Assembly (NCBI GenBank): GCA_964421955.1
Contig: CAYQYU010000003.1
Location: 1 to 64,000, forward strand
DNA length: 64,000 nucleotides
Origin: an uncultured archaeon
GTDB taxonomy: Archaea; Nanohalarchaeota; Nanosalinia; Nanosalinales; Nanosalinaceae
Reading direction: 5' to 3'
Part shown: positions 15,140 through 58,609 of the stretch, one piece after another
Layout: every line of letters begins with the position of its first letter
How positions within the stretch are numbered: the first letter of the stretch is position 1
Notes under the pieces: model-generated
What the model was told of the DNA's origin: nothing
The model's database searches: none
The model's input: the letters and a program-made list of their open reading frames with translations, nothing else
Position numbers and translations under genes: made by a program

Positions 15140-15457
15140 ATGACACTAGGTGGACCTACTTACAGATCATTCGAAGAGATTTACAGAACCATTGAGGAGA
15201 TAGGTAGTGGAGACGTTGAAACAGTGGGCCACCGCGTAGACGGGGCAGAGTTAATAGAAGAACCCGAAAAAGCAAACGCAAGCGAGTATAAATGGATTAG
15301 AATGGAAACCGAACTGACGAGAGTCGAGTACTGGCCCGAATATGAGAAAATTCATGTAAATTACAGGGATGACGTAGGTTACAGAGCCGAGAACGAGAGC
15401 TCAGACCCCGCATCCGAAACTTTCAAGCACCTCATACCATCCAGAATATTCGACTGA
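15140..15457 (+). CDS. Hypothetical protein
   Basis: 105-aa acidic ORF in strand with its neighbours. Confidence 0.6.
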   Translation: MTLGGPTYRSFEEIYRTIEEIGSGDVETVGHRVDGAELIEEPEKANASEYKWIRMETELTRVEYWPEYEKIHVNYRDDVGYRAENESSDPASETFKHLIPSRIFD

Positions 15458-15544
15458 AGGCGTAACAACTCTTTTTGTAACCGCATCGATTGGTTTTTAT
15501 AATTTAACTTCGATTCTTTCGGTGTTTCTAGAGGTGAACAAAAC

Positions 15545-17218
15545 ATGGCAGGACTAGGAGGACAACCTGTATTCATAATGTCGGAAGACGCTACACGGCA
15601 AACCGGTGAAGACGCTCAGGAGAATAATATCGCTGCCTGTAAAACGGTCGCGAAGGCGGTAAGGACCACGCTCGGTCCCAAAGGTATGGACAAGATGATG
15701 GTTGACTCTGTCGGCGACATAGTCGTAACAAACGACGGGGTCACGATTCTCGAGGAAATGGATCTTGAACATCCAGCGGCCAAGATGATGGTCGAAGTCG
15801 CACAGACCCAGGAAGAGGAGGTCGGCGACGGAACCACGACCGCAGTAGTGCTCGCGGGAGAACTTCTGAAGCAGGCGGAGAACCTGCTCGACCAGGAGAT
15901 CCACCCTACAATAATTACACAGGGCTTCAGAATGGCGCGACAGAGATCGACTGAAGTTCTTGAAGACATTGCGGAAGAAGTAGAGCTTGACGATGAAGAT
16001 ACGCTGGAAAAGGTGGCGATGACGGCGATGACCGGAAAAAGCGCGGAGGCAGCCCGCGATTACCTGGCCGAAATCGCGGTTGACGCGGTAACTGCAGTCG
16101 CAGAAAAGGGAGACTCGGGACTTGTCATCAACCGCGACATGATCAAGGTCGAGAAGAACCAGGGCGGTTCAGCAGAAGAAACCGAGCTCGTACAGGGCGT
16201 AATCCTAGACAAGGAAAAAGTACATAGCGGGATGCCCGACAAGATAGAAGACGCGAAGGTCGCAGTCATCAGTTCGCCGATCGAGGTGAAGGAGACAGAG
16301 ACTGATGCTGAAATAAACATAAGCGACCCCGCACAGATGAAGAATTTCGTCGAGCAGGAGGAAGCCCAGCTCAAGGAGATGGTCGAGGCCATCAACGACG
16401 CGGGCGCTAACGTGGTCTTCTGCCAGAAAGGCATCGACGATATTGCACAGCACTACCTCGCCAAGAAGGGAATCTTCGCCGTGAGAAGAGTCTCTTCCAG
16501 CGACGTCGAGAAGCTGGCGAAGGCAACAGGAGCCTCGATCGTGACCTCGGTCGACGACATAGAGGCCAGCGATCTCGGAGAAGCAGGAACAGTCGGGCAG
16601 AAGAGAGTCGGTGGAAATGCGATGACCTTTGTCCAGGACTGTCCCGAGGCGAAGTCCGTCTCGATACTTATCAGAGGCGGAACCGAACACGTGGTGGACG
16701 AGATCGAGCGTGCTATGGAAGACGCTCTTGGAAGCGTTGCAAGCGCTCTCAAAAACGGTCGCATCGTCGGAGGTGGTGGCGCGACGGAAGTCGAGCTCGC
16801 CCGCGAACTCCGGGATCACGCGGACTCTGTCGGTGGAAGAGAACAGCTCGCGATAAATGCTTTTGCGGACGCTCTCGAGGTCCTTCCAAGAACGCTTGCG
16901 GAGAACGCCGGCTTCGATCCGATAGACACGCTGGTCGAACTGAGGAACAAACACGAGTCCGGCGCGAAATGGGCCGGAATCGACGTAACCTCTGGCAAGT
17001 CAGAGGCGCTGTTCGAGAAAGGTGTCGTAGAGCCGAAGCAGACCAAGACCCAGGCCGTCCAGTCCGCGAGCGAGGCCGCGGAAATGATCCTCCGGATCGA
17101 CGACGTGATAAGCGCGTCAGGAATGGGTGGAGGAGACGACGCAGGAGGCGGACCTCCCGCGGGCGGAATGCCTGGTGGAGGAGGCATGCCCGGCGGTATG
17201 CCAGGCGGGATGATGTAA
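15545..17218 (+). CDS. ths: Thermosome (group II chaperonin) subunit
   Basis: [28 protein letters not shown] and a GGM-rich C-tail. SD GAGGTGA upstream. Confidence 0.98.
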
Positions 17219-30451: not shown

Positions 30452-31276
30452 CTATCCCTCGTTCATGTAGACCGTCCTGATAGGGTACGGAATATCGATT
30501 CCCTCTTCATCGAAGCGGTCCTTGATCATCTGTGTGACCTCGCTCGACGCCTGGACGATGCCCGCACGTGAAGAGCTTGTCCAGCCTCTCAGCTTCAGGT
30601 TCACCGAGGAACCTCCCAGCTCGTCAACCAGGACCTGGGGCTCCGGCTCGTCCTCGACAGTCTCCGCTTCTTCAAGAACTTCGTGGGCAATATTCTTCGC
30701 CTGCTCTATATCATCTTCGTAGCTTAAGCCGACGATCACGTCGAAACGCCGGGCATCATAAGCAGTATAGTTTATCACGATATTGTTGTAGAGTACCGAG
30801 TTCGGAACTATTACCTCCCTGCCGTCAAAGGTCTTTATCTTCGACGCCCGTAGCTGGATGTCCTTGAGCGTGCCCTCCTCTCCGTTCACCTCTATCTGGT
30901 CACCGATCTTGAAAGGCCGGTTGACCAGGATGAGTATGCCCGAGATAAAGTTGGCGATCATGTCCTTAAGCGCGAACGAGATACCCAGGCCGATAAGACC
31001 TACTGCGGCACCGATCCCCGACAGCGGGACTCCAAATACTCCAAGTATTGCCACAAATGTTAGCGGAAAAATCGCGTAGGCCGTAACCTTTTTCGCAGAG
31101 GCCGCGGCGTGTTCATCTCCGCCGCGCCTCCTTACCGCTCTCTCGACCAGGATGTTTGAGAGCCTGTTGAGCCCCCATCCCATCCCGGCGACAACCAGAG
31201 CCATCATGACAGTTCTCGAGGTAATGTTGTACGAGTTAAGAAATGCAACTGCCTCTGCGACAAGCTCCGGGGACAT
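30452..31276 (-). CDS. mscS: Small-conductance mechanosensitive channel
   Basis: GISFALKDMIANFISG..RPFKIGDQI, VIVPNS, IDIPYP. Confidence 0.93.
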   Translation of the reverse strand: MSPELVAEAVAFLNSYNITSRTVMMALVVAGMGWGLNRLSNILVERAVRRRGGDEHAAASAKKVTAYAIFPLTFVAILGVFGVPLSGIGAAVGLIGLGISFALKDMIANFISGILILVNRPFKIGDQIEVNGEEGTLKDIQLRASKIKTFDGREVIVPNSVLYNNIVINYTAYDARRFDVIVGLSYEDDIEQAKNIAHEVLEEAETVEDEPEPQVLVDELGGSSVNLKLRGWTSSSRAGIVQASSEVTQMIKDRFDEEGIDIPYPIRTVYMNEG

Positions 31277-49225: not shown

Positions 49226-49885
49226 TTATTGCTTCTGGAAGAATTCGTCGAGCTGCTCCTTGTCATCGCTCGGCCCTATAATCACAAGCTGGTCTCCCTC
49301 GTCTATCCGTATGTTCAGGTCGCCAGTGAGAACCTTATCGGGCTGGATCACCGCGGCTATCTTGAAGTGGTCAGGGAAGCTCTTTTCTTCTTGGAGTTCG
49401 GTCACCGTAGAGCCTACAAGGCCGGATTCCTCCTTTATAGAGGCCTTCAGAACCTCGCGCTCGCTGGAAAGGTTGGCTAGCTTGACCAGATACGGGTGTT
49501 CAACCGTTGACAGGAACTCGCTTATCAGCAGGTCTGTGTGCCCTATGGTCTCCGCGCCTATAACCTCGAACGCGTCGTAGTACTCATCGTCCTCGACACG
49601 GGATACGACCTTTGGAACACCATACTTCTTCCCGAGAGAGCAGATAACCATGTTCTCGTTGTCGTCCTTCGAGGTCGAGATCAAGACGTCCGCCTCGGTG
49701 ATGCCTGCATCCTCCAGCGCGGATAACGCGGTAGGTGAACGGTTGATGACCGTTGCGCCCGAGGATGAGTACAGCCGTTTGCACTTGTCCTCGTCATCAT
49801 CGATGATCACAACGTCGTGACGGTCCTCAAGCTGTTCTACAAGTCTCCTCGACAGGGTGTTGATATCCGCTATTACTACGTACAT
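49226..49885 (-). CDS. trkA: TrkA-family K+ uptake regulatory subunit
   Basis: RCK_N-like (LEDAGITEADV....D.EN...C) plus RCK_C (GDQLVIIG); next to trkH. Confidence 0.85.
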   Translation of the reverse strand: MYVVIADINTLSRRLVEQLEDRHDVVIIDDDEDKCKRLYSSSGATVINRSPTALSALEDAGITEADVLISTSKDDNENMVICSLGKKYGVPKVVSRVEDDEYYDAFEVIGAETIGHTDLLISEFLSTVEHPYLVKLANLSSEREVLKASIKEESGLVGSTVTELQEEKSFPDHFKIAAVIQPDKVLTGDLNIRIDEGDQLVIIGPSDDKEQLDEFFQKQ

Positions 49886-49886
49886 C

Positions 49887-51323
49887 CTAAGAAGAATCTT
49901 TGAACAGGTCGCTATTAAATATTGCCAGAACGGGCAGCATCTCCAGCCTTCCCGCCAGCATTCCGATAACCCACGCGACCTTTATCAGAGGCGAGATAGA
50001 CACCATCTCCTCGCCCTGAATGTAGACAGGACCCATGTTGCCGATAGAGGAGACGCTCCCGGAGAGCGCGGCCATCACATTCATGTCTGACAGCATCAGC
50101 GTCCAGAGGGTCAGGACAAAGGTGAAGGCGACCCAGGTGAAGAAAAGTACTGCGATTGTCTGGACAGTCGACCGCTCCAGTATCTCCCCATCGATTTTGA
50201 CCTCGTTGATCGCGGTCTCCGGCAGAGAGTAAGCACGTATCCGGACTTTCAGAAGCTCTATAAGCGTCTTCAGTCGGAATATCTTGAGACCTCCTGACGT
50301 AGAACCCAGTGAACCCCCGACAAACATTATTCCTATGAATGCGGCCTGTAGCGCGACCGAGAGAGACATAAGCGACATGGTGGCGTAACCGGCCGAGGAG
50401 ATTACCGCGGCAGACTGGAAGGTGGAGTCCACCAGAACGCTCTTCAAACTGTGACCGCTCATGAAAAGTTCTATCCCGGTCAGGATCGCCATCAGACCAA
50501 AGATCTGGGCATACATCTTGAACTCGGAGTTACCTATCAGCGAACTGACATCGGTCCGGAGAACACGGTAAAGCAGCACGAAGTTGACTCCTGCAAGAAA
50601 CATGAAGAACGTCGTAGCAACCGTTATAGCGGTCGAATCAAAACCTCCTATGCTCGCAGCCATTGTCGAAAAACCTCCCGTCGATATCGCCGAAAAGGCG
50701 TGTAGTATTGCGTTGAAAGGAGTCATGCCCAGAGCCACATAGGTGCCAATTATTACCGCAGTCAGGAAGCCATAGACCTTCCAGAGTGCGAAAATCGACT
50801 TTGTGAGCGACGGTCTTATCGACCCGGAATCCGTCTTGTGGGCTTCTGCCGAGAAAAGTCTTCTCGAGACGCCGCCGGATTCACGGATAACCGCGATAAA
50901 GAATGTCAGTATGCCAAGACCTCCTATCCACTGCATGAAGGACCGCCAGAAAAGCAGTGAGCGCGGGAGATTTTCGGGCGCCAGGAACATCGAGATACCG
51001 GTAGTGGTCAGGCCAGCGGCCGACTCGAAGATCGCGTCCACGAGAACCATCTCCGTGAGTAATGGTATCGAACCAAAGATCAAAGCCAGTATCCACCCGA
51101 GAACCGTCGCGAACATGGCCTCCTTGACCGTGGGAGATCCTTTATCAACACCCATCTTGATTGCGTGGCCAAGCACAAGACAAGATATAGATGCCACTAT
51201 GAACCCGGACATGTAGAATATCGACTCCCTGTAGTAGACTGCGACGAGCAGGGGTAGGGCGATGGTGAACGCGAATACCTGGAGGAAGCTGCCTACAAAC
51301 CGGAGAATAACCGGGCTACGCAT
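49887..51323 (-). CDS. trkH: TrkH-family K+ uptake membrane protein
   Basis: FES.AGLTTTG, WRSFMQWIGGLG, STGGFS, GSTSGGLK, GNMGP, GRLE. True start ATG 51323. Confidence 0.95.
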   Translation of the reverse strand: MRSPVILRFVGSFLQVFAFTIALPLLVAVYYRESIFYMSGFIVASISCLVLGHAIKMGVDKGSPTVKEAMFATVLGWILALIFGSIPLLTEMVLVDAIFESAAGLTTTGISMFLAPENLPRSLLFWRSFMQWIGGLGILTFFIAVIRESGGVSRRLFSAEAHKTDSGSIRPSLTKSIFALWKVYGFLTAVIIGTYVALGMTPFNAILHAFSAISTGGFSTMAASIGGFDSTAITVATTFFMFLAGVNFVLLYRVLRTDVSSLIGNSEFKMYAQIFGLMAILTGIELFMSGHSLKSVLVDSTFQSAAVISSAGYATMSLMSLSVALQAAFIGIMFVGGSLGSTSGGLKIFRLKTLIELLKVRIRAYSLPETAINEVKIDGEILERSTVQTIAVLFFTWVAFTFVLTLWTLMLSDMNVMAALSGSVSSIGNMGPVYIQGEEMVSISPLIKVAWVIGMLAGRLEMLPVLAIFNSDLFKDSS

Positions 51324-51419
51324 GTATTCGAAGTTCCGGCTGCGGGAATAAAAAGCTCTCCAATTAAAAAAGTTTCTCGCCAAGACTAGGATGCTCGGGC
51401 AACTGAGCGGTGATTCATA

Positions 51420-51794
51420 ATGCAAGTTACTATCGGAACACAGGATGGCGAAACCTTCCAGACAGAACTGGAAGACTCTTCTCAACTCACAGGAAAGAAA
51501 ATAGGGGAAACCTTTGACGGCGGAATCATAGGCCTCAGCGGATACGAGCTGGAGATTACCGGTGGCAGCGACAGGCAGGGATTTCCCATGAGGAAGAGTA
51601 TAGAAGGTACTGCCCGGAGAAAAGTGCTGCTCGAGGAAGGCTCTGGCACCCGGGAAAAGGAGCAGGGAATGAGGCGCAGGAAATCCGTGCGCGGAAACAC
51701 TGTTTCGGACGAGATACAGCAGCTCAACACCACTGTAGCGGAAAAAGGCAGCAAATCCGTGGAAGACCTTCTTGGTGAAGAAGAGGAAGAATAA
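51420..51794 (+). CDS. rps6e: Ribosomal protein eS6
   Basis: LEITGGSD..GFPM, RRRKSVRGN.....I.QLN. Confidence 0.96.
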   Translation: MQVTIGTQDGETFQTELEDSSQLTGKKIGETFDGGIIGLSGYELEITGGSDRQGFPMRKSIEGTARRKVLLEEGSGTREKEQGMRRRKSVRGNTVSDEIQQLNTTVAEKGSKSVEDLLGEEEEE

Positions 51795-52028: not shown

Positions 52029-53216
52029 ATGACCGAAGGAATACCAGAGGCAAACATCGGGCTTGTAGGCCATGTCGACCACGGGAAGACCACGCTCACA
52101 CAGGCACTTTCGGGTAAGTGGACTGACGAGCACTCGGAAGAGTTGAGAAAGGGGATCACGATAAGGATAGGATACGCCGATATAACATACTATGACGATG
52201 ACGGGGACCTCAATGTTGATGGAGACGGCGACGAGGTTAGGACCGTCTCGCTTGTAGACGCACCGGGCCATGAGACCCTGATGGCAAACGTCCTCTCGGG
52301 CGCGGCAATAATGGACGGCGCCATACTTTTGATCGCGGCGGACGAGGACTGTCCGCAACCCCAGACACGGGAACACCTAGCTGCGCTGGACATCGCTGGC
52401 GTTGAAAATATTGTGATTGCCCAGAACAAGATTGACCTTGTCGACGAGGATCAGGTGCGTGAAAACCACGAGCAGATACAGGAGTTTGTATCCGGAACAG
52501 TCGCGGAAGAAGCACCCGTAATACCGATATCTGCACAGCACGGCGTCAACATCGATGCACTGCTCGAAGCCGTAGACGATGAAATACCCACGCCGGAGAG
52601 AGATTCTGAAGAGGAGCCAAGGATGCTTGTCGCCCGGTCATTCGACATCAACAAGCCCGGGACCTCCCCTGAAGATATCAGAGGCGGAGTAGTAGGGGGT
52701 AGCCTTATCCAGGGAGAGATAGAGGAAGGCGATGAAATCGAGCTCAGACCCGGTCCACGTATCGACAAGGAGTGGGAGCCTGTAGTCACGACAGTCGAGG
52801 GCATCATGCAGGGTTCAAAAGCCGCGGATAAAGGCACACCGGGAGGACTGCTTGCAATCGAAACCTCTCTGGATCCGTCTCTTGCAAAGTCGGACGGCCT
52901 CTCTGGCAACGTCCTCGGCAGGAAGGACGAACTTCCAGAGGTGACCCAGACAATAGAGATCGAGGTAGACCTCATGGACCGACTGGTCGGCGCGGAAGAC
53001 GAACAGGAGATCGAGAACATAAAGGAAAACGAGGCCCTGATGCTAAATGTCGGGACCGGAAAGTCCGCAGGAATCGTCACACAGGCAGGGAAGAATGTCC
53101 GCCTGGACCTGAAAGTGCCAGTGTGTGCAGAAGAAGATGATCGAGTCGCAATATCGCGCCAGATAGGCTCTCGATGGCGTTTAATCGGTCATGGGAAGAT
53201 AAGCTCGCTTGAATAA
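52029..53216 (+). CDS. eif2g: Translation initiation factor 2 gamma subunit
   Basis: GHVDHGKTT, GITIRIGY, DAPGHE, PQPQTREH, NKID, RSFDINKPG, RWRLIG. Confidence 0.97.
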   Translation: MTEGIPEANIGLVGHVDHGKTTLTQALSGKWTDEHSEELRKGITIRIGYADITYYDDDGDLNVDGDGDEVRTVSLVDAPGHETLMANVLSGAAIMDGAILLIAADEDCPQPQTREHLAALDIAGVENIVIAQNKIDLVDEDQVRENHEQIQEFVSGTVAEEAPVIPISAQHGVNIDALLEAVDDEIPTPERDSEEEPRMLVARSFDINKPGTSPEDIRGGVVGGSLIQGEIEEGDEIELRPGPRIDKEWEPVVTTVEGIMQGSKAADKGTPGGLLAIETSLDPSLAKSDGLSGNVLGRKDELPEVTQTIEIEVDLMDRLVGAEDEQEIENIKENEALMLNVGTGKSAGIVTQAGKNVRLDLKVPVCAEEDDRVAISRQIGSRWRLIGHGKISSLE

Positions 53217-53284
53217 GCCCCCTCATTTTTAAAGCCGAGTACCGTGATTACAACTTACTGTAACACCATCCGGTGGACCCTCAC

Positions 53285-54838
53285 ATGAGCTTCTTCAATC
53301 AACTCCTGACCCTTACCCAGGGCGGCGATGCCCTTGCAAGAGTCATACTTACACTCCTGATACTTCTATCAGGCCACCTGGGTGTCAAACTGCTCGGGAT
53401 TCTGGTAAGAAGGTTCTGGGTGGAGAAAGGGGACCTAAACAAGAAGCAGGTCGAGGAGCGGAACGATACTATACGACACCTGGGCTACGTACTTGACGCG
53501 GTAGTAATCGTCGCGGCACTGCTCTACCTCAACACAAACCTTACTTCAGCGTTCTCCACAGGGCTCGCAGAGTTTGTGCCCGACATGCTTTCTGCGATCC
53601 TTATCGGTCTGCTTGGCTTCATAGTGGTCAACGTAACGATAAAGGTGGGTGCTGACTTCCTGAGAACCATCGGGATCAGGAATTACTTCAGGGAGGTGGG
53701 TCTATCGGGGAGCGCTATCAACTTTGCATCCGTGCTTCTGAGAGGATTCCTGTACCTGCTAATCGCCCAGATCGCTCTCACCGAACTTGGGATAGGCGAG
53801 ACATTCATCGACAAACTCGTGACTGCCTCTTCCTGGGCCGCGGCATTCCTTATAGCCGCTCTGCTGTTCTACGGCTTCAAGGATCTTTTCCAGAACTTCG
53901 CCGCAGGTATATACCTGAAGAACTCGCAGCAGGTGAGGCCCGGCGAACAGGTCAACCTTGAACAGGGAAAAGGCGAGATCCGTGAGGTATCACTTTTCTC
54001 GACGACTATAGATACTGAAACAGGCTATACTCTTCTCACTCCAAATGCGAGAGTTATGGACTCGGAGATAAAGTTCAAGAGGACCAAGAGCGATATTGAC
54101 ACTCTGGAGGACATAAAGAGCTACTTCGTCGCTCAGCACCCTTCCTACTGCGGGCCGGCCTCCATGGAAATGGCGCTCGAAATATTCGGATACAGGCACA
54201 GCCAGGAAGAGATAGGTGAAAAAGCAGAAACCACCGAGGAAGAAGGAACCGACCGTGACAAGCTGATGGAAGCAGTGGAAGAAATGACGGAGGAAGAGGT
54301 CAGCACCGCGTACGTGGAGTACGACAAGATCACTGATATAGCGGACGAGTTCAAGACCTGGTTCAACGACGGAGCAATGATAGTTCCAAACTTCTACAAG
54401 CCAGAGCTCTTCCCAGACGCAACAACAGGACACTATGTACTGTCTGTGGGTGTCGAGGGGGACGAGATACTGGTCATAGATCCCAGCGGCCACACCGGAA
54501 GCGGCGGAGTCTACTACGTCAACAAGGACAGGCTCTACGATGCGATGGCAGAGTTCGATCATTCACGCGGATACATAATAGTCGCGCCGGAGGGAACTAC
54601 GGCGCACTGGAGGATCAAGAACGACCTGATCTATAGCGACAGGACCTATTATGATGAGCTCTCGAAGACCCTGGAAGCACGGCTTAGAAAGATAATGAGA
54701 CAGGGGGGACTCCTGAAAAATGCAATGCCTTCATCTATAAAAGACTACATGGAGGACTGGAGGACTGGAGAACGGGTTACCCGGCTCTGGAAGGCCACGG
54801 AGGGGAAAGATGAAACTTCTGAAGATAACAAGGAATGA
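53285..54838 (+). CDS. MscS-like channel fused to a C-terminal C39-like (papain-fold) peptidase
   Basis: TM helices plus KDLFQNFAAG...VRPGE...TPN (MscS beta domain). Then Q..SYCGPAS (Cys codon 54149), GHYV (His 54431), VIDP (Asp 54479). Confidence 0.85.
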   Translation: MSFFNQLLTLTQGGDALARVILTLLILLSGHLGVKLLGILVRRFWVEKGDLNKKQVEERNDTIRHLGYVLDAVVIVAALLYLNTNLTSAFSTGLAEFVPDMLSAILIGLLGFIVVNVTIKVGADFLRTIGIRNYFREVGLSGSAINFASVLLRGFLYLLIAQIALTELGIGETFIDKLVTASSWAAAFLIAALLFYGFKDLFQNFAAGIYLKNSQQVRPGEQVNLEQGKGEIREVSLFSTTIDTETGYTLLTPNARVMDSEIKFKRTKSDIDTLEDIKSYFVAQHPSYCGPASMEMALEIFGYRHSQEEIGEKAETTEEEGTDRDKLMEAVEEMTEEEVSTAYVEYDKITDIADEFKTWFNDGAMIVPNFYKPELFPDATTGHYVLSVGVEGDEILVIDPSGHTGSGGVYYVNKDRLYDAMAEFDHSRGYIIVAPEGTTAHWRIKNDLIYSDRTYYDELSKTLEARLRKIMRQGGLLKNAMPSSIKDYMEDWRTGERVTRLWKATEGKDETSEDNKE

Positions 54839-55619
54839 CTTTGAAGAGTTCGACCCACTGTTTGAAGAGGTCGAAACGGTCAACGTTGAACAGGTCGCGC
54901 CGTCGGTCATAGACGGTGAGACAGATGTAAAGATCAATGGCGGCTCGATATCGGATTACGACGCAGTCTTCACGGATATACCCCAGAAAAACGCCGTCTT
55001 CGGACGCGTCCTGCTCGAAATGATAGAGGAGGAGGGTATCCGCACCAACCATCCCTCGACCGCATTCTTCATCATGTCGAAGAAGAACTATTTGCACCAT
55101 GTACTCCACCAGAAAGACATCGACGCTTCCGCAACAGTTGTGGTTGCATCGGATAAAGCCGGCCGGAACATCGAAGACCATCTCGAGACGCCGCTGATCG
55201 CGAGAAAATTCGACCAGCTTGTGGAAGTTGAAAGCCGGCTGATCGAGGACGAGGACACAATAGAGGAATTTGTCGGCGGCACCGAGTATCCCGACGAGTT
55301 CATAGTGTTCCAGGAGCTCGAGGATGGCGACAAGTACAGGTGCCTCTACGCCGGAGGCGAAATCATATCCCTGATGGACAGCAGCGACAGCTGGCAGCTC
55401 CAGGATGAAAAACTGAAGTACTCGTCCCTTTCACAGGAGCAGAAAAAAACCGTGGAGAAAGCCGCAAAGAACATTGGAACACCCGTAGCCGAGGTAGTCC
55501 TGCGCGGCGGGAAAGTCTTCGACGTGAACCCTAACCCCGATCTGGGCCAGTACACTGAAGTATCCGGCAAAAACGCCTACGAGGCCGTTGCACAGGTCCT
55601 GAAAGGTGATATAGGTTGA
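54810..55619 (+). CDS. Divergent RimK-like ATP-grasp protein
   Basis: YDAVF, N.PS......KK, PLIARK, FQE, YRC...GGEII, DVNPNP; several motifs degenerate. Confidence 0.75.
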   Translation: MKLLKITRNDFEEFDPLFEEVETVNVEQVAPSVIDGETDVKINGGSISDYDAVFTDIPQKNAVFGRVLLEMIEEEGIRTNHPSTAFFIMSKKNYLHHVLHQKDIDASATVVVASDKAGRNIEDHLETPLIARKFDQLVEVESRLIEDEDTIEEFVGGTEYPDEFIVFQELEDGDKYRCLYAGGEIISLMDSSDSWQLQDEKLKYSSLSQEQKKTVEKAAKNIGTPVAEVVLRGGKVFDVNPNPDLGQYTEVSGKNAYEAVAQVLKGDIG

Positions 55620-55671
55620 AGCTTTCCGCAGGAAAGACTTCTGGCAAAAATCAGCCGGAGGCGGATTTTTA

Positions 55672-56559
55672 ATGAAAATGGCGATAGTGTACGGCGACAT
55701 ATCGACCACCCACCAGCTCATAATTGAAAGAGCGGAAGAGATTTTCGAGTCCGTGCTCGCAGCACCTGTTGACGGCCTGAAGTTTGCACATATTGACGGC
55801 GAGAACAAGGTAATCTACAAGGATACCGATCTGACCGAGTTCGACGCGGTCTACATAAGGACCGGGGACAAGGACAAGCTGTTCTCCGAGCACCTTACAG
55901 AGGTCCTGAATGAAGCCGGGGCAGTCACGCAGGCGGAGAACGACACCTATGCTTACGAGTCCAACAAGTTCTACTCGATGAAGGTACTGGCGGAAAACGG
56001 GGTCAAGGTTCCCGACAGCGTCTACACTCTTTCTCCTGACGCGGCAGTTGAGGCCGCGGAAAAGCTCGGCTACCCGATCATCATGAAAACTATCGGCGGG
56101 GGAGGCGGCCAGGGAGTAATGCGCGCGACCTCGGAAAACGAGCTGAAACCAGTTATGGATACCATGAAGGCCTTCGAACAGGACATCTGCCTCCAGGAGT
56201 ACAAAGAGCACGACGGCACTGACAACCGCATAATAGTCATCGGCGATCAACTGGTCGGCTACCAGCGCTCCAGCGCAGGGGACGAATGGAGGTCAAACAT
56301 ATCAGGCGGCGGAGACAGGAGAAAGGCAGAGATTACGGAAGAGATCGAAGAGTCCGCAACAAGATCCGCGAAAGCACTCGGATTCGATATCTGCGGCTGT
56401 GACATAATAGACATCGAGGACGGAGTTTACGTACTGGAGGTTAACGGAGCCTTCGGCCTTAACGAGGGAATAAATGATGTAGTCGGCGAGGACATAATTC
56501 TGCGTGTCGTCGAGGGAATGCACGAACTGGCAATTCAGCACCAGGAAGAGAAAAAATGA
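55672..56559 (+). CDS. RimK/LysX-family ATP-grasp amide ligase
   Basis: NKF....L...GV.VP, YPIIMK...GGGGQGV, LQEY, D.RIIVIG, WRSNISGGG, GCDII, LEVNG. Confidence 0.92.
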   Translation: MKMAIVYGDISTTHQLIIERAEEIFESVLAAPVDGLKFAHIDGENKVIYKDTDLTEFDAVYIRTGDKDKLFSEHLTEVLNEAGAVTQAENDTYAYESNKFYSMKVLAENGVKVPDSVYTLSPDAAVEAAEKLGYPIIMKTIGGGGGQGVMRATSENELKPVMDTMKAFEQDICLQEYKEHDGTDNRIIVIGDQLVGYQRSSAGDEWRSNISGGGDRRKAEITEEIEESATRSAKALGFDICGCDIIDIEDGVYVLEVNGAFGLNEGINDVVGEDIILRVVEGMHELAIQHQEEKK

Positions 56560-57608
56560 GAACCGGAGTCGAACTGGAGTACTGGGTTACAGACGGGAAC
56601 GGAAAGCTACGCTCCGCCGAAAAGATCGCCTCGCGACTGGATTTCGCCGAAAGAGAATTTGTCGAACCGGTACTTGAAATAAAAACGGAGCCACGAGAAA
56701 CAGTTTCTGGGTTGAGGAACGAGATCAAGAGGAAGCTCAAGAATGCCATAGAGGAGGCGGAAAGCCTCGATCTGAACATTGTCGGTCTGGGGACACCACT
56801 TCACTCGGGAGAGATCAAAACAGATGAATCGGCGAGATCAAGACTACAGGAGAAAATTGTGGGTGAACGGCTCAACTACGCCAAACACGTTGCGGGCACA
56901 CACTTCCACTTTGAACAGACCGATCCCGTGAAACAGATCAATCTCCTGACCGCGCTCGACCCCTCGCTCTCGCTTGTCAGCTCCTCACCCTACTACCGGG
57001 GCAAGAGAGTGGCAGACAATGCGAGAAACCAGATATACCGCTACAGGTGCTACGAGAAACTCTCAAAACACGGCCAGCTCTGGAACTATACCTCGAGCAG
57101 GGAAGAATGGGAGAACCGTATCGAGACGAGATTCAACGAGTTCAAGGATTTTGCGCAGGAAAAAGGGATAGATGGATCAAAGATAGAAGAGCACTTCCGC
57201 CCGGAGGACAGCATATGGATTCCCGTCAGGCTCAGGGAAAAGTTCGGAACAGTTGAATGGAGATCTCCTGATTCCGCTCTTCCCGGCCGGATAATCGAGT
57301 TGCTCGAAAAAATCAGGCATCTAGTTGAAAAAACTGGAGACAGCAGACTTGAGACAGGGAAACCCGGGATAGAACCGGGAAGAATAGTGGTGCCGGAGTT
57401 CACGGAACTTGACCGGCTCTCAAGAAACGCGATATATGATGGGCAGGAAAACGGTGAAGTCCGGAGATATCTCGAGGAACTAGGGTTTGAAAAACAGGAT
57501 TCAGTCTCCAGGGAAATTGATGCCGGGGCCAGCATAGATCGTGAGACCGCTAAAAAAATAAGACTGAAATACAGCAAAAAGCTCAAGCAGGACGTCAAAA
57601 AGCTCTAG
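56556..57608 (+). CDS. Glutamate--cysteine ligase family 2 (GCS2/YbdK-type carboxylate-amine ligase)
   Basis: GVELEYWV, EF....LEIKT, GTHFHF, SSPYY.G, W.PVRLR..FGTVEWR.PD. Confidence 0.88.
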   Translation: MRTGVELEYWVTDGNGKLRSAEKIASRLDFAEREFVEPVLEIKTEPRETVSGLRNEIKRKLKNAIEEAESLDLNIVGLGTPLHSGEIKTDESARSRLQEKIVGERLNYAKHVAGTHFHFEQTDPVKQINLLTALDPSLSLVSSSPYYRGKRVADNARNQIYRYRCYEKLSKHGQLWNYTSSREEWENRIETRFNEFKDFAQEKGIDGSKIEEHFRPEDSIWIPVRLREKFGTVEWRSPDSALPGRIIELLEKIRHLVEKTGDSRLETGKPGIEPGRIVVPEFTELDRLSRNAIYDGQENGEVRRYLEELGFEKQDSVSREIDAGASIDRETAKKIRLKYSKKLKQDVKKL

Positions 57609-57612
57609 AAAA

Positions 57613-57990
57613 ATGAAGAAGATAATCCTTGACACCAACTTCCTGGTGGCGCCCTTCCAGCTAAATCTCTCAGTTTTCGATGAACTCGAAAGACTCTACC
57701 CGCACGCGGAGACATACACCCTGGAAGACGTGATCCAGGAGGCGAAGAGCATAGAGTCCGGCAAGTACAAGGCTCTTGTCCACAAACTGGTTGAAACACA
57801 GGACATGGAGGTTCTCGAAACAGAAGGAAGCGGAAGCGTCGACGACCTGCTCGTCGATCTCGCGGACGAGTACGTGATCGCCACCAACGACAGGGAGCTG
57901 AAGCAGAGGCTGCTCGAAAAAGATGCGGAAGTCGTGATTATCCGGAGCAAGAACCATCTCGAGGCGCTTAACCGGCAGGAACTTCGATAG
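57613..57990 (+). CDS. PIN-domain protein (Utp24/Fcf1-like)
   Basis: ILDTNFL, VDD.L, ATNDREL; usual position before rpoE1. Confidence 0.9.
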   Translation: MKKIILDTNFLVAPFQLNLSVFDELERLYPHAETYTLEDVIQEAKSIESGKYKALVHKLVETQDMEVLETEGSGSVDDLLVDLADEYVIATNDRELKQRLLEKDAEVVIIRSKNHLEALNRQELR

Positions 57991-58048: not shown

Positions 58049-58609
58049 ATGTACAAGAGGCTTACAGTCCAGGACTCGGTAAGAGTACCGCCAGAGCACC
58101 TGGGAGATGACCTTGAGGAAAGCGTAAGAGCCGGACTTAGAGAAGAAGTTGAAGGAAGAATTCTATCGGAAGTAGGAGTCGTGATAGGAGTCGAAGATGT
58201 GAACTCTGTCGAGGGCGGAGATATCAGGCCTGAAGACGCAGGGGTCCACTACGAGGTCGAATACCAGGCCATCGTTTTCGAACCCGAACTGCACGAAGTG
58301 GTGCACGGCGAGGTGGTCGACATCACTGGCTTCGGCGCATTCGTTAGAATCGGGCCTTTCGACGGTCTATGCCACGTATCCCAGGTTATGGACGACTACG
58401 TCAACCACGACGAGGAAAACGACATGCTTGTATCTGACGAGAACGACTTCTCACTACAGGTCGGCGATGTACTGACCGCAAGGATAATAGCAGTCTCGCT
58501 CGAGAACCAGGAGAGCAACAAGATCAACCTCACGATGAGACAGCCAGGTCTCGGAAAGGACGAATGGATCGAGGCGCACGAGGAAGAACAGGAAGAGGAG
58601 GAAGAGTAA
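58049..58609 (+). CDS. rpoE1: RNA polymerase subunit E' (Rpo7)
   Basis: VRVPP, FGAFVRIGPFDGLCHVSQ, LTMRQPGLGK. Confidence 0.97.
   Translation: MYKRLTVQDSVRVPPEHLGDDLEESVRAGLREEVEGRILSEVGVVIGVEDVNSVEGGDIRPEDAGVHYEVEYQAIVFEPELHEVVHGEVVDITGFGAFVRIGPFDGLCHVSQVMDDYVNHDEENDMLVSDENDFSLQVGDVLTARIIAVSLENQESNKINLTMRQPGLGKDEWIEAHEEEQEEEEE

Follow-up and report, generated by a model that had tools for sequence, protein, structure and literature searches.

A conserved nanohaloarchaeal gene module encoding an MscS channel/papain-fold fusion protein, a RimK-type ligase and a putative RimK pseudo-enzyme predicted to bind one another

Gene content of the locus

We analyzed a stretch of 64,000 nucleotides (nt) from an uncultured nanohaloarchaeon (GenBank assembly GCA_964421955.1, contig CAYQYU010000003.1, positions 1 to 64,000 of the forward strand; this whole stretch is referred to as the window), which belongs to an assembly of 922,649 bases in 27 contigs with 98.8% completeness. 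The subject of this work is a group of genes inserted between eIF2 gamma (eIF2γ, 52029-53216, plus strand) and a PIN_9 gene (57613-57990, plus strand), both identified by Pfam, which form the conserved 5' and 3' flanks of the insertion. An earlier note on this DNA had claimed four co-oriented genes between these flanks, and this was borne out: the open reading frames (ORFs) occupy 53285-57608 and are spaced by 4-68 nt or overlap. All genes from eIF2γ to PIN_9 lie on the plus strand. After eIF2γ come a fusion of an MscS-type channel with a papain-fold domain (517 amino acids, 53285-54838; Pfam, AlphaFold and Foldseek), a RimK-like gene (269 amino acids, 54810-55619; profile alignment and AlphaFold), a RimK-type alpha-L-glutamate ligase (295 amino acids, 55672-56559; TIGR00768 and an invariant catalytic set) and a GCS2/YbdK-type carboxylate-amine ligase (350 amino acids, 56556-57608; Pfam GCS2). 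The fusion overlaps the second gene by 29 nt and RimK overlaps GCS2 by 4 nt, with gaps of 68 nt between eIF2γ and the fusion and of 4 nt between GCS2 and PIN_9. An alternative GTG start at 53273 would give a fusion of 521 amino acids (517 from the ATG at 53285). The unit that is conserved among relatives consists of three of these genes, the fusion, the RimK-like gene and RimK, not of four as the earlier note had proposed.

The channel-peptidase fusion protein

The N-terminal part of the fusion (residues 1-262 approximately; 53285-54070, plus strand) has five predicted transmembrane (TM) helices, the last of which corresponds to the MscS pore helix, followed by a beta-domain. PF00924 (MS_channel_2nd) scores 36.2 bits against a cut-off of 20.2 and covers residues 204-266 of the 521-residue ORF, PF05552 covers residues 93-135 of the same ORF, and the NCBIfam MscS models stay at 28 and 20 bits, where 321 and 400 would be required. 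In the AlphaFold model (predicted local distance difference test, pLDDT, 86; predicted template modelling score, pTM, 0.54) helices run over residues 16-46, 53-82, 84-129, 142-167 and 174-213, with strands over 222-263, and the channel part is matched by Foldseek to Escherichia coli MscS (4hwa and 2oau, E ~1e-6). The model shows no canonical MscS alpha-beta domain or barrel after the beta-domain; a papain-fold domain stands there instead (residues 266-435 approximately; 54080-54589, plus strand), which is C39_2- or phytochelatin-synthase-like by Pfam and Foldseek. This mixed alpha/beta domain is followed by helices 439-445, 461-476 and 483-495 and by a disordered tail at 497-517. A conserved C-terminal helix region (residues 456-476, YYDELSKTLEARLRKI...; 54650-54712, plus strand) contains the predicted docking site for RimK and its paralogue; among 61 sequences Y456 is invariant and K461, E464 and L467 are each kept in at least 90%. 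The tail itself (54773-54835, plus strand) is acidic, has pLDDT below 50 and ends in Glu in the window. From the MscS homology and the positions of basic loops, the C-terminal part would be cytoplasmic.

Both Peptidase_C39_2 (PF13529, 36.1 bits) and Peptidase_C39 (PF03412, 25.5 bits) match the fusion above the Pfam cut-offs. Foldseek matches of the C-terminal domain include the primitive phytochelatin synthase Alr0975 of Nostoc (2bu3, E 2.2e-7, target TM-score 0.64 over 198 columns), the C39 domain of ComA (target TM-score 0.74-0.76) and the pseudomurein endoisopeptidase PeiR. The top match to Alr0975, made with a predicted structure, points to resemblance and not to membership among phytochelatin synthases; the Pfam Phytochelatin model (PF05023) scores 21.6 bits on the fusion, below its cut-off of 24.9. 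The traits of C39 leader peptidases were looked for as well, and neither an ABC transporter nor a small precursor ORF is present in the locus. When the C-terminal 252 residues were searched against 1.84 billion representative sequences, 102 matches were found at E ≤ 1e-3, about half of them proteins of ~500 amino acids aligned at the same position, that is, the same fusion; the remaining matches are mostly shorter proteins, and C39 or C39_2 was found in 11 of 11 that were scanned.

The earlier note had attributed peptidase activity to this domain, and here a distinction is required. The residues Q284, C289, H383 and D399 are all intact in the window, but the Cys and/or His is lost in half of the 48 loci compared here (24 intact, 24 lost), and among 119 full-length database homologues the Q-C-H-D set is complete in 76 and the Cys and/or His lost in 43. 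A catalytically active domain is therefore not needed in every locus.

Some features of the fusion family were observed on the side. The string (K/Q)(L/I)DEFT stands near the C-terminus of the fusion in loci L021, L024, L025, L029, L030, L050-L055 and L057, and is found in most loci of families f3 and f4, and the tails of family f1 tend to end in DE(A/T)SE(D/N)N-like strings; such short conserved motifs may be linear motifs for a partner enzyme. Four distant homologues of the fusion (P0165, P0169, P0172 and P0177; 24-34% identity) are lysine-rich and non-acidic, share the architecture and the conserved WRI...LYY...ER.LK helix region, and by inspection are without the catalytic Cys and His. The fusion architecture may thus occur outside halophiles, as far as the composition of these proteins indicates.

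RimK and its inactive paralogue

The gene at 55672-56559 encodes a RimK-type ligase: PF08443 matches with E 1.4e-34, the family model TIGR00768 scores 151.1 bits against a cut-off of 143.4, and the best solved relatives are the RimK structures 5zct and 4iwx (E ~5e-43). There is also a match to GSH-S_ATP at 3e-13, and the equivalog model for the ribosomal S6--L-glutamate ligase (PRK10446) scores 110.6 against a cut-off of 331. Residues K139, G143, G145, G146, G148, Q175, D184, R186 and R199 are invariant in 43 of 43 sequences, as are R207-S208-N209, D244, E256 and N258, and by this alignment the catalytic ATP-grasp set is complete.

The upstream paralogue (54810-55619) has no Pfam match and shows only weak matches to rimK_fam and MptN (E ~1e-5 to 1e-6); TIGR00768 gives 24.2 bits against the cut-off of 143.4. 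Alignment of its profile to that of RimK by hhalign nevertheless has a probability of 99.6, and its AlphaFold model (pLDDT 94) has the RimK fold, with a TM-score of 0.86 to Pseudomonas aeruginosa RimK (7qyr) at ~20% identity. In the alignment the Gly loop, R207, S208, N209, D244, E256 and N258 are all replaced, and among 45 orthologues only P128, Y204 and G223 are invariant, with no catalytic ATP-grasp column kept. Judged by its residues, this protein is a catalytically dead RimK, a putative pseudo-enzyme. The earlier note's count of two ATP-grasp ligases therefore stands for 55672-56559, which keeps the catalytic residues, but not for 54810-55619.

A three-gene core at a fixed site

The fusion was scored as present when a match at E ≤ 1e-60 covered most of the protein or its C-terminal domain. 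By this measure it occurs in 52 of 57 genomes of the same order and in none of four outgroup genomes, so that the combination of MscS with C39, whose conservation the earlier note had proposed to check, is indeed a conserved architecture. We fetched 47 loci from three families, giving 48 with the window, and mapped them by tblastn with the window proteins and with representatives of the other genes found there. The order fusion, dead RimK, RimK is observed in 47 of 47 loci with downstream sequence (the window counted; three families), and 45 of 45 loci with enough sequence on the 5' side have eIF2γ before the fusion. Gene order kept in every locus indicates that the arrangement is not due to chance. 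In one locus, L040 (G002:C89), the RimK match carries an in-frame stop and the 3' tail of the fusion is aberrant, from module decay or from an assembly error.

Two genomes carry the site without the insertion. In G040 (93% complete) and G045 (88% complete) PIN lies directly 3' of eIF2γ, no fusion was found, and no RimK-family match exists anywhere in either genome; fusion and RimK are thus present or absent together. The direct junction in these genomes indicates that the flanks are simply the ancestral eIF2γ-PIN junction. The claim that eIF2γ and PIN are normally neighbours holds within this lineage, and the uninterrupted sites support a functionally linked insertion between them. As for the co-occurrence of four genes, it stands for the fusion, dead RimK and RimK (47 of 47) and fails for GCS2, a type-specific accessory found in 10 of 39 complete slots (see below).

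A reading as anti-phage defence was considered and set aside: no PADLOC model family matched any of six window proteins, and the site is fixed and inherited.

Predicted complex of the channel helix with the RimK pair

We co-folded RimK, the dead paralogue and channel residues 264-517, each with its own alignment. The predicted complex reached an interaction score from aligned errors (ipSAE) of 0.88 (0.85, 0.89 and 0.88 in separate runs), and the best of three controls, in one of which RimK was replaced, gave 0.00. In calibration the mark was reached by 58 of 80 solved complexes and by 2 of 110 mismatched pairs, a comparison that is rough here, since the input consisted of three chains with alignments of our own. 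At least 95% of contacts are common to the runs, and the pLDDT of the partners is 80-82. In the model, channel helix 458-476 together with residues 437-442 contacts residues 73-88, 98, 102 and 220-224 of the dead paralogue and residues 89-91, 105-110 and 231-237 of RimK. The interface holds the conserved channel residues K461 and E464 and adjoins the invariant Y456 and R443; on the partner side it holds the invariant G223 and the conserved V98 of the dead paralogue and the invariant G237 of RimK. The model supports binding of the RimK/dead-RimK pair by the C-terminal helix of the channel. We know of no solved complex of such a channel helix with a RimK pair, although no search was directed at one.

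The predicted partner bears on an explanation in which the channel would be a mere neighbour or a sensor and the ligases would modify a translation component encoded close by, such as the poly-Glu C-terminus of eS6, or eIF2γ. It would agree with the action of RimK on bacterial S6, with the position of the module inside the translation superoperon, and with the S6e proteins in most loci of the window's family, which end in EE or a longer acidic run; moreover, the eukaryotic ATP-grasp protein CDC123 binds eIF2γ (PMC4431377). On the other hand, acidic tails are common in this organism (RpoE also ends in poly-Glu), the flank is just the ancestral junction described above, the ligase pair is predicted to bind the channel helix, and the fold of the dead paralogue is that of RimK, with no CDC123 among the matches listed. 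We regard this explanation as quite improbable. CDC123 as an identity for the dead paralogue was dropped in view of its RimK-like fold and its predicted channel partner.

The variable slot between RimK and PIN

The contents of this slot, which is complete in 39 loci, vary. We found GCS2, MATCAP/DUF1704-like proteins, AstE/aspartoacylase-like (M14-type) proteins, an extra RimK, a MobB-like P-loop protein, one to three YheCD/TTL-like ATP-grasps on the opposite strand, and a protein of ~340 amino acids (unk344) whose Atlas features place it near DUF1611/MobB-like clusters (0.98, a lead only) and which shows no relation to the GCS2 profile. The GCS2 protein of the window (56556-57608) matches PF04107 with 42.5 bits against a cut-off of 21 and has a profile match to YbdK (1r8g, E 2.9e-6); E6, E8, E34, E41, H116, H118, R227, E234 and R236 are invariant in 10 sequences. 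The YbdK subfamily model TIGR02050 gives 53.3 bits against a cut-off of 176.4, and glutamate-cysteine ligase models give at most 33 bits against cut-offs of ~400.

The slot contents follow the state of the papain-fold domain. All ten loci with GCS2 have the Q-C-H-D set intact. A MATCAP-like gene is observed in the slot in 17 of the 24 loci that have lost Cys or His and in none of the 24 Q-C-H-D loci, and HExxH is kept in 17 of 17 of these genes. From the residue patterns this looks like one peptidase replacing another, with GCS2 tied to the live Cys peptidase. We also considered a genome-wide anti-correlation of MATCAP with the live Cys domain and rejected it as imperfect (canonical MATCAPs elsewhere; three dead-domain genomes without any); only the in-slot pattern holds.

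For loci of the window's type, a thiol-peptide pathway would be a competing interpretation of these enzymes, in which GCS2 would be a gamma-glutamylcysteine ligase, RimK would be the second ligase in the manner of glutathione synthetase, and the papain-fold domain would be a transpeptidase or hydrolase resembling phytochelatin synthase, so that glutathione- or phytochelatin-like peptides would be made or processed at an efflux channel. It draws on the best structural match of the C-terminal domain, the 198-column match to Alr0975 with its glutathione acyl-enzyme, on the restriction of GCS2 to loci with intact Q-C-H-D (10 of 10), and on the GSH-S_ATP match of RimK. The sub-threshold Phytochelatin score argues against it, as do the scores of GCS2 far under the NCBIfam cut-offs for gamma-glutamylcysteine ligase and YbdK; the window RimK is much nearer to RimK than to GshB, and the core trio occurs without GCS2 in 29 of the 39 complete loci. 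Taken together, a pathway of this kind seems improbable.

Module types and their exchange between genera

The loci can be sorted into four module types. Type I, to which the window belongs, combines RimK2 with a live domain and GCS2, with or without YheCD, and Type II combines RimK2 with a dead domain and YheCD, with or without MATCAP. Type III has RimK4, a live domain, a DUF1611-like protein and AstE or GCS2, and Type IV has RimK4, a dead domain, AstE, RimK3 and MATCAP.

These types do not follow the host tree. In five genera (pairs L019/L041, L039/L015, L045/L014, L027/L048 and L024/L028) the type of the entire module, fusion through slot, differs while the flanking eIF2γ proteins are 78-90% identical. 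Loci L019 and L041, of the same genus, are 90% identical in eIF2γ, 67% in RimK, 46% in the C-terminal domain (C-domain) and 60% in the dead RimK, and L027 and L048, also of one genus, are 86% identical in eIF2γ but 42% in RimK, 48% in the C-domain and 34% in the dead RimK. Between L041 and L018, of different genera, eIF2γ is 74% identical and RimK 86%, the C-domain 81% and the dead RimK 66%. These identities indicate that a few old module types have been exchanged between genera at the same site, and this suggests replacement of module types by recombination at the fixed site.

On a tree of eIF2γ and the N-terminal MscS part (MscS-N) the catalytic state changes at least 11 times, and among seven independent pairs the presence of MATCAP changed in the opposite direction in 5-6 and in the same direction in none (p 0.03-0.06). 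The C-domain tree and the tree built from dead RimK and RimK each show only two changes of catalytic state, so the sign test on the eIF2γ tree overstates independence: the combination of a dead domain with MATCAP arose twice, with different MATCAP subtypes, and not seven times.

With synteny, joint absence and exchange in hand, we can also consider that there is no system at all and that four unrelated genes are packed together in a small, dense genome. High gene density and the lack of conservation of GCS2 with the other genes would speak for this. Against it stand the synteny in 47 of 47 loci across three families, the co-absence in two genomes, the module-wide co-inheritance and exchange, and the strong predicted complex, and we consider it highly improbable.

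Comparison with known systems

The closest studied analogue of the module is Pseudomonas RloABC, which works in a similar way; the module is not a member of that system. In P. aeruginosa the RimK-like RloC, RloB (seven TM helices and an inactive transglutaminase domain) and the polyglutamate-cleaving RloA peptidases belong to one pathway, which cells need under hypo-osmotic stress, and a triple-peptidase mutant of Pseudomonas shows no growth under such stress unless rloB or rloC is deleted (PMC11957051). RloA is retropepsin-like, and a requirement for the peptidase exists only in the presence of the ligase and the membrane protein (PMC11957051). Both systems combine a RimK-like cytoplasmic ligase with a peptidase for acidic chains and with an inner-membrane protein whose papain-superfamily domain is inactive in many or all cases, and both are linked to hypo-osmotic conditions, by phenotype in Pseudomonas and by the MscS channel here. 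They differ in the membrane part, which is an MscS channel here and a protein with seven TM helices there, and in the papain-fold domain, which here is of the C39/phytochelatin-synthase type, probably cytoplasmic and intact in half of the loci. The peptidases here are Cys, MATCAP or M14-like enzymes and not aspartic ones, a dead RimK is always present, and the host is an archaeon. Among the window genes and 29 scanned slot proteins there is no match to the family of seven-TM transglutaminase proteins or to aspartic peptidase families, and no Pfam sequence match to the Rlo families was seen among the window genes.

In bacteria, RimK attaches glutamates to the C-terminus of RpsF (S6) and also produces poly-alpha-glutamate; the peptidase RimB, its partner, trims the product and stimulates synthesis, and the evolution of the rim genes does not keep step with that of their hosts (PMC11957791). 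The window RimK is nearest to solved RimK structures and passes the rimK_fam cut-off, and a ligase and a trimming peptidase in one complex (predicted here) and inheritance out of step with the host are further likenesses to RimK/RimB/RimA. It differs in that no retropepsin-like or EAL partner is present here and the predicted partner is a membrane channel. To our knowledge, archaea are without a bacterial-type S6.

MscS-family channels with extra domains include the cyclic-nucleotide-binding bCNG channels, MscK and MscCG. In common with these, the fusion joins the MscS pore helix and beta-domain to additional TM helices at the N-terminus and to a C-terminal domain that is not the canonical one; it differs from them in that this domain is a papain-fold (pseudo)peptidase followed by a predicted ligase-docking helix. 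The literature that we searched contains no description of an MscS-papain-fold architecture of this kind, nor of a ligase/peptidase system on an MscS channel, in line with the earlier note's statement that it knew of no such operon, and it yielded nothing on the module in nanohaloarchaea; supplementary files of nanohaloarchaeal genome papers, which the search did not cover, may list such genes.

Amidoligase-peptidase gene neighbourhoods were reportedly predicted by Iyer, Abhiman, Burroughs and Aravind in 2009, and are said to draw on the same families: RimK-like and other ATP-grasps, COOH-NH2 ligases of the GCS2 type, DUF1704/MATCAP, AstE/M14-like proteins and papain-fold peptidases. The tubulin tail code of eukaryotes involves TTL/TTLL ligases, vasohibin, MATCAP and cytosolic carboxypeptidases. 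The RimK/TTL-like ATP-grasps, MATCAP, the papain-superfamily Cys peptidase and the M14-like AstE found at one locus here resemble that set by analogy only; there is no tubulin here, and the likeness is one of gene content.

A proposed glutamate-writing and -trimming machine on a mechanosensitive channel

We propose, with a probability of about 0.5, that the module is one physical machine at the cytoplasmic face of a mechanosensitive channel, in which glutamate is written and trimmed. The papain-fold domain, the conserved helix and the floppy acidic tail would take the place of the usual MscS alpha-beta and barrel domains, and the live RimK and its dead paralogue, the latter as adaptor or scaffold, would dock together on the channel helix. 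RimK would then use ATP to attach glutamates by alpha linkages to a C-terminus that the channel keeps in place; the channel's own tail is the first candidate for this acceptor, and the product may be clipped off as a short oligoglutamate. A peptidase would reverse or release this glutamylation, which in loci like the window may be the channel-borne Cys-His domain and in dead-domain loci the MATCAP-like zinc peptidase from the variable slot. GCS2 would be a second, type-specific ligase that probably adds a gamma-glutamyl-type residue handled by the live Cys peptidase. In effect, the machine may adjust channel gating or the release of solutes upon osmotic downshift, a link that we infer because of the MscS identity, the Rlo phenotype and the adjacent TrkA and TrkH genes. 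Of this picture, gene content, synteny, the residues retained or lost and the joint absence of fusion and RimK are observed, the docking is predicted, and substrate, GCS2 chemistry and physiological output are inferred. The products suggested in the earlier note, a glutamyl peptide serving as osmolyte or counter-ion or a reversible glutamylation of protein, are both candidates on the present data.

Several points weigh against this proposal. Conservation of the channel tail is poor, and only about one third of 47 orthologues have Glu as their last residue, so that trimming would often be needed first. The displacement of one peptidase by another amounts to two independent origins only. Six dead-domain loci are without MATCAP in the slot, and in three dead-domain genomes (G015, G027 and G028) MATCAP was not found genome-wide; some Q-C-H-D genomes carry a canonical MATCAP elsewhere. 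The ipSAE value is the model's own confidence and not a measurement, and RimK may equally act on free glutamate.

This last point leads to the main rival, the first option of the earlier note, in which no protein is modified: from cytosolic glutamate RimK would make free oligo- or poly-alpha-glutamate, which would serve as K+ counter-ion or as an anion store that is osmotically "silent"; the peptidase would regenerate glutamate, and the free oligoglutamate would be released or degraded at the pore, with the MscS pore letting out glutamate or K-glutamate on downshift. MscS-family channels pass glutamate, and TrkA/TrkH K+ uptake genes lie just upstream in most loci. Poly-alpha-glutamate synthesis by RimK under stimulation by RimB would fit as well (PMC11957791), and so would the death of Rlo mutants under hypo-osmotic stress and their rescue by removal of the ligase or the membrane protein (PMC11957051). 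It leaves unexplained, however, the docking helix and the dead-paralogue adaptor on the channel, and likewise the TTL-like, MATCAP-like and M14-like accessory enzymes. The eukaryotic relatives of these enzymes act on protein C-termini. We consider free product a possible but rather unlikely outcome.

If glutamate is written onto the channel itself, as in the machine that we favor, a bolder version can be imagined: an archaeal "tail code" on an ion channel, in which the acidic C-terminus would be extended or capped by tethered ligases and trimmed by peptidases and would determine the threshold for gating. The writers would be RimK, GCS2 or TTL-like ATP-grasps, and the erasers the in-cis Cys domain or MATCAP and M14-like enzymes. 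Were this true, it would be a prokaryotic counterpart of tubulin tail modification, with the same enzyme families and with cassettes swapped between genera. We hold it to be speculative and doubtful.

Systems of this general kind, in which a RimK-type ligase goes together with a trimming peptidase and with a membrane protein that has a papain-superfamily domain, are known from Rim and Rlo (PMC11957791; PMC11957051). The gene-neighbourhood predictions of Iyer and colleagues reportedly describe them too. What the present module adds is the fusion to MscS, an obligatory RimK paralogue that is dead, a predicted docking helix, an archaeal host, and swappable writer and eraser cassettes. Nanohaloarchaea have little metabolism and genomes of ~1 Mb, and the retention of the module at one fixed site in 52 of 57 such genomes suggests that it probably has a central role in their life at saturating salt on a host cell. 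It is a tractable system for the study of an MscS channel in which a (pseudo)peptidase stands in for the cytoplasmic cage, of a pseudo-enzyme paired with its live paralogue, and of a RimK ligase outside bacteria with a predicted non-ribosomal partner, and the interchangeable ligase and peptidase cassettes are natural "experiments" on the pairing of writers and erasers. It may also be tied to the unexplained Rlo pathway of Pseudomonas, with its RimK-like ligase, membrane papain-fold protein and role in hypo-osmotic survival; both systems may share the principle of acidic peptide chemistry at the membrane in osmotic control.

Neighboring genes and minor observations

TrkA (49226-49885, minus strand) and a TrkH-like K+ uptake gene (~49887-51350, minus strand) lie divergently upstream of the genes from S6e to eIF2γ, and in most fetched loci with enough sequence on that side TrkA is found at the same place. 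The fusion is not the sole MscS protein here: an ordinary MscS-type gene, in an ORF of 281 amino acids, lies at 30776-31012 (minus strand) of the window.

S6e (51420-51794) ends in GEEEEE and RpoE (58049-58609) in EEQEEEEE in the window, and both are possible RimK acceptors; EE-rich tails of S6e and RpoE are found in most orthologues of the window's family (loci L013-L059), and acidic tails are general in the proteome. We considered eS6 as the substrate and rejected it on the ground that acidic C-termini are general here.

A gene of the S66 family (LD-carboxypeptidase/MccF-like, PF02016 and PF17676; 60020-61072, plus strand) lies between SUI1 and an RNase P subunit gene within the ribosomal superoperon; the host archaeon is without murein. 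The S66 gene is not at that site in L016, L036 and L037, nor in L017 (up to SUI1), among the loci that reach far enough. Across 61 relatives the family occurs in 16, at other sites, and no link to module type was seen. In one relative (G013), two tandem matches to SUI1 (aIF1) lie at 15435-16003 of locus L016.

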